Source: Octopus sinensis
Taxonomy: Eukaryota
Reading direction: 5' to 3'
DNA length: 64,000 nt
NCBI RefSeq assembly: GCF_006345805.1
Contig: NC_043000.1
Coordinates: forward strand, 9,300,001 to 9,364,000
This document shows positions 56,632 through 57,751 of this stretch, one piece after another. The translations under genes and the position numbers were made by a program. Position 1 is the stretch's first letter. Each line of letters begins with the position of its first letter. The notes beneath the pieces are model-generated. The model was not told the DNA's origin and did no database searches. It saw only the letters and a list, made by a program, of their open reading frames with translations.

Positions 56632-56910
56632 ATATATATATATATTATATATATATATATATATATATATATATATATATATATATTATTAGTCAATTTA
56701 GGGTAGCAAAAAAATTCAATAGAAATTTATCGCTACCAGCGGCCTGGTGGAAAAGAGAAAATAGTCATCGACTAAATATATAAATATAACAATTTAGGAG
56801 TGACCCTAACAGGTCATTCGTCCACCAGAAAGAGCAGCCATAACTCACACCGCCAAGTAGTAGTAATTCAGAAATTAGGTGAAAATTTAAAAACATTTAC
56901 CCTAATTCAT

Positions 56911-57010
56911 CTTTTAGACGTTGCAACGTTTCTGTGTCATTAATGATTAAATTAGCTTAATTAAATTAAATTAAGCTAATCTACCATAGGTTACACTTCA
57001 TCAGTAAAAA
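56911..57010 (-). ncRNA. type I hammerhead ribozyme (duplicate at 58633-58732)
   Basis: Reverse complement of 57179-57278. Confidence 0.82.
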
Positions 57011-57178
57011 ACCTGGGAGAGACAAATATACACGAGTCGCAATAATTCTGAGATTGAATCGGCAGTTTATATTTACTGCTGATAAGTTTGGCGCGAATAC
57101 GTCAGTCTTGAAAATTTTAAGACAGATATTCCGTAGGCATCGATACAGACGCCTCGTGTATATTTGTCTCTCCCAGGT

Positions 57179-57278
57179 TTTTTACTGATGAAGTGTAACC
57201 TATGGTAGATTAGCTTAATTTAATTTAATTAAGCTAATTTAATCATTAATGACACAGAAACGTTGCAACGTCTAAAAG
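57179..57278 (+). ncRNA. type I hammerhead ribozyme with long stem II (duplicate at 58901-59000)
   Basis: ttttta-CTGATGA-agtgt..tagattagcttaatt/aattaagctaattta..acaca-GAAA-cgttgcaacg-TC-taaaag. Stem III is the palindrome ACGTTGCAACGT; cleavage falls after 57272. Confidence 0.82.
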
Positions 57279-57751
57279 ATGAATTAGGTAAATGTTTTTA
57301 AATTTTCACCTAATTTCTGAATTACTACTACTTGGCGGTGTGAGTTATGGCTGCTCTTTCTGGTGGACGAATGACCTGTTAGGGTCACTCCTAAATTGTT
57401 ATATATATATATATATATATATTATATATATATATATATATGTATATATATATATATATGTATGTGTGTGTGTGTGTGTGTGTGTGTGTGTGGTGTGTGT
57501 GTGTGTGTGTGTGTGTGTGTGTGTCAGTACTTCATATATCCGAAAAGAAGCACACTCTAAAAACATAATATTTAAAAGGTTATTAATAGTTATCGACGAG
57601 CTAACATGGCAGTCCAGAAAAATAGGACGAATGCTGCCGTTGATTAGCTCCAAGAGGCCATCGCCTCTAGCTAGCTATGTGACACACGAACTTGTGTCCA
57701 TTATAACCTTCGAACAGGGGAGGTCAGCCGCTTCCCCTTGCCGGTCTGGCA

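Follow-up and report, generated by a model that had tools for sequence, protein, structure and literature searches.

Two head-to-head copies of a hammerhead-bearing repeat unit in a (TA)n tract of Octopus sinensis, probably a PLE-type insertion

Introduction

Why does a short, apparently non-coding stretch of octopus DNA carry a hammerhead ribozyme motif on each of its strands? The question arises from a locus in a window of 64,000 nucleotides of the Octopus sinensis genome (contig NC_043000.1, positions 9,300,001 to 9,364,000), the whole stretch of DNA analysed here and the one to which all coordinates refer. An earlier note had described the locus as an ambisense ribozyme cassette, in which inverted arms around a spacer place an intact hammerhead on each strand, so that a transcript in either direction could contain a ribozyme and fold into a long double-stranded RNA (dsRNA); it had also named the alternative that the inversion is a by-product of insertion.

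In Avsunviroidae and viroid-like RNAs, a single replicon encodes a separate ribozyme in either polarity. For ASBVd, see the mention in PMC6155905. Pairs of hammerheads on opposite strands, 100–700 bp apart, were described in 2014 and attributed to truncated Penelope-like elements (PLEs; PMC4209133). Metazoan non-LTR retrozymes, with units of 51–972 bp, have been proposed to be non-autonomous PLE derivatives (PMC7229834; bioRxiv 10.64898/2026.07.22.740005).

Layout of the cassette

The locus comprises the following features (coordinates, strand, description):

56632–56686, unstranded: left (TA)n target run, which follows a SINE-like repeat (56370–56632)
56690–57036, minus: left unit copy, truncated at its 5' end (57036), with hammerhead and tail (from sequence comparison; the spacer end follows in contig loose ends behind 57036)
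56690–56783, minus: one-sided tail of 94 bp, its outer end merging into (TA)n (joined in contigs to 57041)
56909–57012, minus: left type I hammerhead motif, core (first base of CUGAUGA) at 57004, predicted cleavage after 56917
57037–57040, unstranded: inversion junction, four filler bases separating the 5' ends of the two copies (lowest-depth bin, loose ends on either side)
57041–57404, plus: right copy, consisting of the "spacer" (its native upstream 112 bp) and the arm, without tail (starts where the tail ends within the unit)
57177–57280, plus: right type I hammerhead motif, core at 57185, palindrome 57260–57271, predicted cleavage after 57272
57400–57463, unstranded: right (TA)n target run
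58411–59126, unstranded: second copy of the cassette, within a 1.72-kb tandem duplication (about 56290–58030 / 58000–59800), ending in (TG)n

The inverted arms, 56784–57036 (253 bp) and 57153–57404 (252 bp), differ by not a single substitution and by one 1-nt gap in a G run, and lie 116 bp apart (57037–57152), which bears out the near-identical arms of about 250 bp and the spacing given in the earlier note, as well as its view of a young insertion, which is probable given arms free of substitutions. The (TA)n runs on both flanks were likewise recognised correctly, and so was the presence of one hammerhead per strand, the two cores being 181 bp apart. The cassette is asymmetric, the tail being present on the left copy and absent from the right, and both of its outer ends merge into (TA)n 4–9 nt past a shared 9-nt motif. 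This motif (56694–56702, minus; 56790–56798, minus; 57390–57398, plus) lies 4–9 nt before the tail end and the arm ends, has one further occurrence in the window outside both cassettes, and possibly marks start sites of reverse transcription. By analogy with another PLE, whose two start sites bound the tail (PMC11167929), the 94-bp tail would likely be the stretch between two such sites.

The downstream repeat of the cassette (58411–59122, 99.4% identical) was not part of the earlier description. Outside microsatellites, the copies of the duplication (56290–59800) differ by one substitution and by single-base homopolymer gaps. Among the four arms, the only differences are three gaps of one base within G runs; each gap is confined to a single arm, and they look like long-read error. 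The duplication is either a recent event or an assembly artefact.

The cassette sits in the (TA)n tail of the SINE-like repeat, which by eye has a tRNA-like head, recurs at 58095–58357 and has related pieces at 47666–47792, 50540–50699 and 22520–22622; ARAGORN found no tRNA in the 64-kb window. The window is rich in microsatellites and contains a GC-rich LINE-like element (29021–34409, minus) with gag-like, endonuclease and RT frames, split into several pieces, as well as, by eye, pieces of mariner-like transposase and several LINE-like RT frames (1260–2100, minus; 7498–8565; 18071–19963; 40095–41876).

The repeat family in public sequencing runs

At least half of the sampled words of 56690–57152 are present in 20 of 24 listed public runs (three organisms, eight studies). 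Contigs were taken from four of the 24 runs, from three organisms, at 85% likeness, and numbered 1361, 793, 532 and 21 per run; the repeat family is abundant, although summed contig depth does not equal copy number and was not used as such. No listed run with the family is on record as RNA, and as run X9 is RNA only by guess, its joint was not counted as evidence for transcription or circularity. No published description of the family was found in the literature on octopus or cephalopod Penelope elements, hammerheads and retrozymes; Repbase, Dfam or the supplements of PMC8557442 and PMC4209133 may list it.

The contigs decide to which copy the spacer belongs. A joint between the tail end at 56690 and position 57041 on the opposite strand occurs in all four runs (4, 1, 2 and 1 contigs); the tail end also appears in loose ends before 57041/57043, with about 17 extra letters in a longer variant. 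Behind 57036, the loose ends agree in 17 of 18 letters with the spacer end read as reverse complement. The spacer therefore belongs to the right copy, as its upstream portion on the plus strand, and the path of the family is spacer, arm, tail and again spacer. The link from spacer to arm in other copies comprises 18 letters, below the 31-letter rule applied for bridging; the window itself joins the spacer to the arm. Our initial reading, in which the spacer was assigned to the left copy and the junction to 57152, was ruled out by the contigs of the four runs: the real inversion junction is 57036|57041.

Chaining these pieces yields a unit of 458 nt (about 460) with a GC fraction of 0.343 and one hammerhead in one polarity. 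The longest Met-initiated ORF in a head-to-tail dimer of the unit has 43 aa, in line with the non-coding nature proposed before. We infer, from a chain of short overlapping contigs among which no listed piece spans the whole unit, that the ORF-less unit would close head-to-tail; two same-strand units within one record do not occur among the pieces listed, though the head-to-tail joint is found in 4/4 runs.

The earlier note had asked whether the inversion point is shared between copies or varies. Among 29 depth bins, the one containing the junction (57026–57041) ranks lowest in each of the four runs, and none of the 32 listed pieces (of 2749) bridges 57036–57043. Variability was seen in part: two further joints in run X1 (56959|57055 and 56749|57092; one contig each, five filler letters, sides of 29 and 26 letters) look, weakly, like inversions at other points and could also be deletions. 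Other copies, too, end in TA runs, with loose ends at 56776, 56823 and 56963.

The hammerhead motifs

Each motif contains the CUGANGA core, GAAA and an NUH triplet in type I order: a helix I of 8 bp (six A-U and two G-U pairs), a helix II region of 65 nt including an AU-rich hairpin, and a helix III that lies in a perfect 12-nt palindrome, with GUC as cleavage triplet. All three helices can form in a constrained fold (8 bp, 4 bp plus the inner hairpin, and 4 bp). This active fold is predicted at −28.9 kcal/mol, 3.4 kcal/mol above the local minimum of −32.3 kcal/mol reached by free folding, and free folding of the 110-nt region did not yield the hammerhead. The description of the hammerheads as intact holds for the core nucleotides, which have no listed variant at ≥5% in the four runs, but not for their context: the closing pair of helix II (G10.1-C11.1) does not directly precede G12, an extra A (56933 in the left copy) being placed between this pair and GAAA. 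An alternative register with a U-A pair in helix II costs 5.6 kcal/mol more, and the preferred register has one extra A after A9 and one before G12. An extra nucleotide after A9 is usual for PLE hammerheads (PMC4209133), whereas a narrow literature search found no precedent for the extra A before G12, which is likely a family trait, as no variant is listed at this position.

None of the Rfam hammerhead models matched anywhere in the window at gathering score, a search that also misses both motifs of the near-full PLE described below; at E≤10, the 32 rows returned included no hammerhead, the best rows being TA-repeat noise. A pattern limited to a helix II of ≤35 nt missed the cassette motif as well (10 matches, 4.35 expected). 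A descriptor composed after the motif had been seen was read against dinucleotide shuffles: seven sites of the window match it, compared with no match in any of 200 shuffles. Four of the seven belong to the cassette and its duplicate and the other three to PLE-like loci. An eighth, non-palindromic site, at 17079, came from a looser scan and was dropped. Exact-pattern scans of metagenome contigs and of viral contigs found nothing.

The palindrome, which the earlier note had considered suited to dimeric cleavage, is predicted to favour the duplex, its 12-bp duplex reaching −17.9 kcal/mol compared with −0.9 kcal/mol for the hairpin. Variants of the family keep a palindrome: the only two helix III variants listed, at 56921 and 56926, are palindrome partner positions, and one contig of run X9 has a third palindrome at helix III. 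Judging from their depths, which are similar in runs X2 and X6 and 2.4-fold apart in X1, the two variants would co-occur on one molecule.

A sequence resembling a 3' splice site (57164–57177, plus) stops exactly at the start of helix I; a 3' splice site ending at helix I has been reported for Penelope of D. virilis (PMC4209133). A hexamer resembling a 5' splice site lies at 57340–57345 (plus), and its first G is variable (21–46% of depth in the four runs, at place 56848).

Predicted behaviour of transcripts

The proposal that a transcript in either direction could provide both a ribozyme and a dsRNA hairpin is predicted to hold, in read-through RNA, for the hairpin only. RNA of the cassette is predicted to form a hairpin of 252 bp at about −480 kcal/mol. 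Whichever strand is read through, the antisense arm precedes the hammerhead in the RNA, and all 11 core positions examined are predicted to be paired with a probability of at least 0.997; hairpin and ribozyme would thus be mutually exclusive. According to these predictions, cleavage should be blocked in read-through RNA of the inverted locus, and only transcripts that start inside the spacer would escape the block.

PLE-like loci elsewhere in the window

A second locus in the window has a comparable architecture:

8781–12705, plus: near-full PLE-type element of a family different from the cassette; frame at 9499–11862; hammerheads at 12421 (plus) and 8910 (minus)

Its inverted arms of 379 bp are 97.9% identical, it is flanked by (TA)n, and a tail of about 155 bp is present on one side only. 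As in the cassette, the long copy starts at the motif where its own tail ends. Both hammerheads have a long helix II and a palindromic helix III. The frame encodes 787 aa with DKT, YRDD, YIG, CxxC and CxH motifs and an Asn-rich linker, with two stops upstream; these motifs appear to fit the Hydra clade as described in PMC8557442, with RWK reading RWL. Pfam provided no name for the frame or for three of its homologues, and the best named homologues of the retroelement frame in the window come from Argonauta hians (37% identity). The element was rejected as the autonomous partner of the cassette, as its sequence does not match; more generally, neither of the two PLE-like loci matches the cassette unit, no autonomous partner with the terminal repeat of the unit was found in the window, and the three hammerhead regions of the window align poorly with each other. 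The same two-strand hammerhead layout in an unrelated family points to the mechanism of insertion as its source.

The other locus is a decayed PLE-like fragment (5943–6834, minus) with a weak GIY-YIG match at 6181–6465 (E 0.00057, under the cut-off). Adjoining it on the opposite strand is a hammerhead motif at 7134 (plus), with a 12-bp helix II and an 8-nt palindrome, which ends in (TA)n. A short motif is common to the 3' end of this locus and the end of the arm in the 8781–12705 element.

Discussion

The layout corresponds to the published insertion signature of PLEs, i.e., an inverted, 5'-truncated, head-to-head copy, a tail at one end and a (TA)n target (PMC8557442; PMC3846280), the latter known for Hydra and Naiad PLEs (PMC8557442), together with a type I hammerhead close to the 3' end. 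The cassette differs from these insertions in that its tail is 94 bp long instead of the 30–40 bp usually reported, and in that its unit has no ORF for RT and GIY-YIG and thus does not qualify as an autonomous PLE. With the dual minimal hammerheads of truncated PLEs in Schistosoma mansoni (PMC4209133) it shares the opposite strands at a distance of 100–700 bp, the extra nucleotide after A9, a short, weak helix I and a palindromic helix III region. It deviates from them by a real 4-bp helix III within the 12-nt palindrome, by the 65-nt helix II region with its inserted hairpin and by the extra A before G12. Short, non-coding units of low GC content (34% in the cassette unit) that contain one type I hammerhead and are joined head-to-tail are likewise found in metazoan non-LTR retrozymes (PMC7229834; bioRxiv 10.64898/2026.07.22.740005), and the length of the unit falls into their range; these retrozymes form direct tandem arrays, in contrast to the inverted pair with PLE tail described here, which is known from contigs. 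Judged by its sequence, the unit likely works like a non-autonomous PLE derivative or a non-LTR retrozyme, and it is likely a new member of a non-autonomous PLE/retrozyme family in a known arrangement.

We consider it probable that the cassette consists of two head-to-head copies of the unit, which were inserted into (TA)n in a single event by the RT-endonuclease of an autonomous PLE, in agreement with the by-product alternative of the earlier note. In vitro, the protein of an anole PLE cuts and extends both strands of AT-rich DNA, initiates reverse transcription at two sites of the RNA, one at each border of the tail, and can insert independently of hammerhead cleavage (PMC11167929). By analogy, a PLE protein would nick both strands of the (TA)n target, and the RNA of the unit would be reverse-transcribed from either nick as primer. 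The tail end would be the start of one cDNA and the arm end, 94 nt farther upstream, that of the other. Of these two cDNAs, extended toward the 5' end of the RNA, the left one would stop early (57036) and the right one reach the unit start (57041), before repair joins them head-to-head with the four filler bases. The hammerhead is predicted to act in head-to-tail multimeric transcripts, where pairing of the palindromic helix III might assist the release of unit-length RNA; among retrozyme dimers tested for cleavage, one of nine cleaved (bioRxiv 10.64898/2026.07.22.740005). A more far-reaching version of this scenario, which we regard as tentative and rather doubtful, is that an abundant cephalopod retrozyme family shows every part of the PLE signature on integration (priming on two strands, a tail, targeting of TA) and so provides direct structural evidence of mobilisation by Hydra-clade PLE proteins, with start sites guided by sequence and with a hammerhead that is an active natural core variant, having an extra A on each side of helix II and working only as a dimer.

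The same geometry would be expected if the cassette were the doubly truncated remnant of an autonomous PLE and the ORF-less unit a rare internal deletion or an illusion created by short contigs, not an independently spreading family. No listed record spans the whole unit, and 95 loose ends exist beyond those listed. However, contigs are unbroken across 57043–57132, 57054–57144 (depth 1350.8) and 57062–57148, where the ORF would have to lie, and spacer and arm are contiguous in the window, which makes a remnant unlikely. An inversion that arose when copies recombined later, or by fold-back self-priming on an antisense template (a model put forward in PMC3846280 for head-to-head PLE structures), appears even less probable than a remnant: short hairpins do occur within the spacer, but self-priming needs palindromes at the junction, where at most a 3-bp stem lies beside the four filler bases, and both outer ends merge into (TA)n at end points typical of the family.

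A fixed ambisense cassette, selected for one cleaving hammerhead per direction of transcription plus a dsRNA hairpin, would explain the motif on both strands, and divergent transcripts from within the spacer would each have a free hammerhead; bidirectional promoter motifs have been noted in other pLTRs (PMC3846280). Unlike the replicons of ambisense viroid-like RNAs, with which the locus shares a hammerhead readable on each strand, the unit has one polarity and a single hammerhead, the second being a duplicate at the level of DNA. Moreover, the lowest depth at the junction bin in all four runs, the different positions of other junction-like joints, the predicted burial of the core in read-through RNA and the recurrence of the layout in an unrelated PLE family of the window speak against fixation, and we regard this explanation as very improbable. 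Least probable of all is an artefact of assembly, with fold-back or noisy long reads having produced the inverted arm or the 1.72-kb duplicate. The private G-run gaps that are the sole differences among the four arms and the lack of a listed contig bridging the junction would fit an artefact, an explanation better suited to the duplicate than to the inversion; a random fold-back would not be expected to give a one-sided tail, (TA)n on both sides and a right copy beginning at the unit start.

The arrangement itself was already known, and as reported here it matters little. In cephalopods, inverted insertions of this kind might provide ready-made dsRNA for editing or for silencing by small RNAs. 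As what appears to be a small, abundant and ORF-less substrate with all hallmarks of PLE insertion, the family could serve to test the mobilisation of retrozymes by PLE proteins, the origin of head-to-head inversion, and cleavage by a hammerhead with an extra A before G12.
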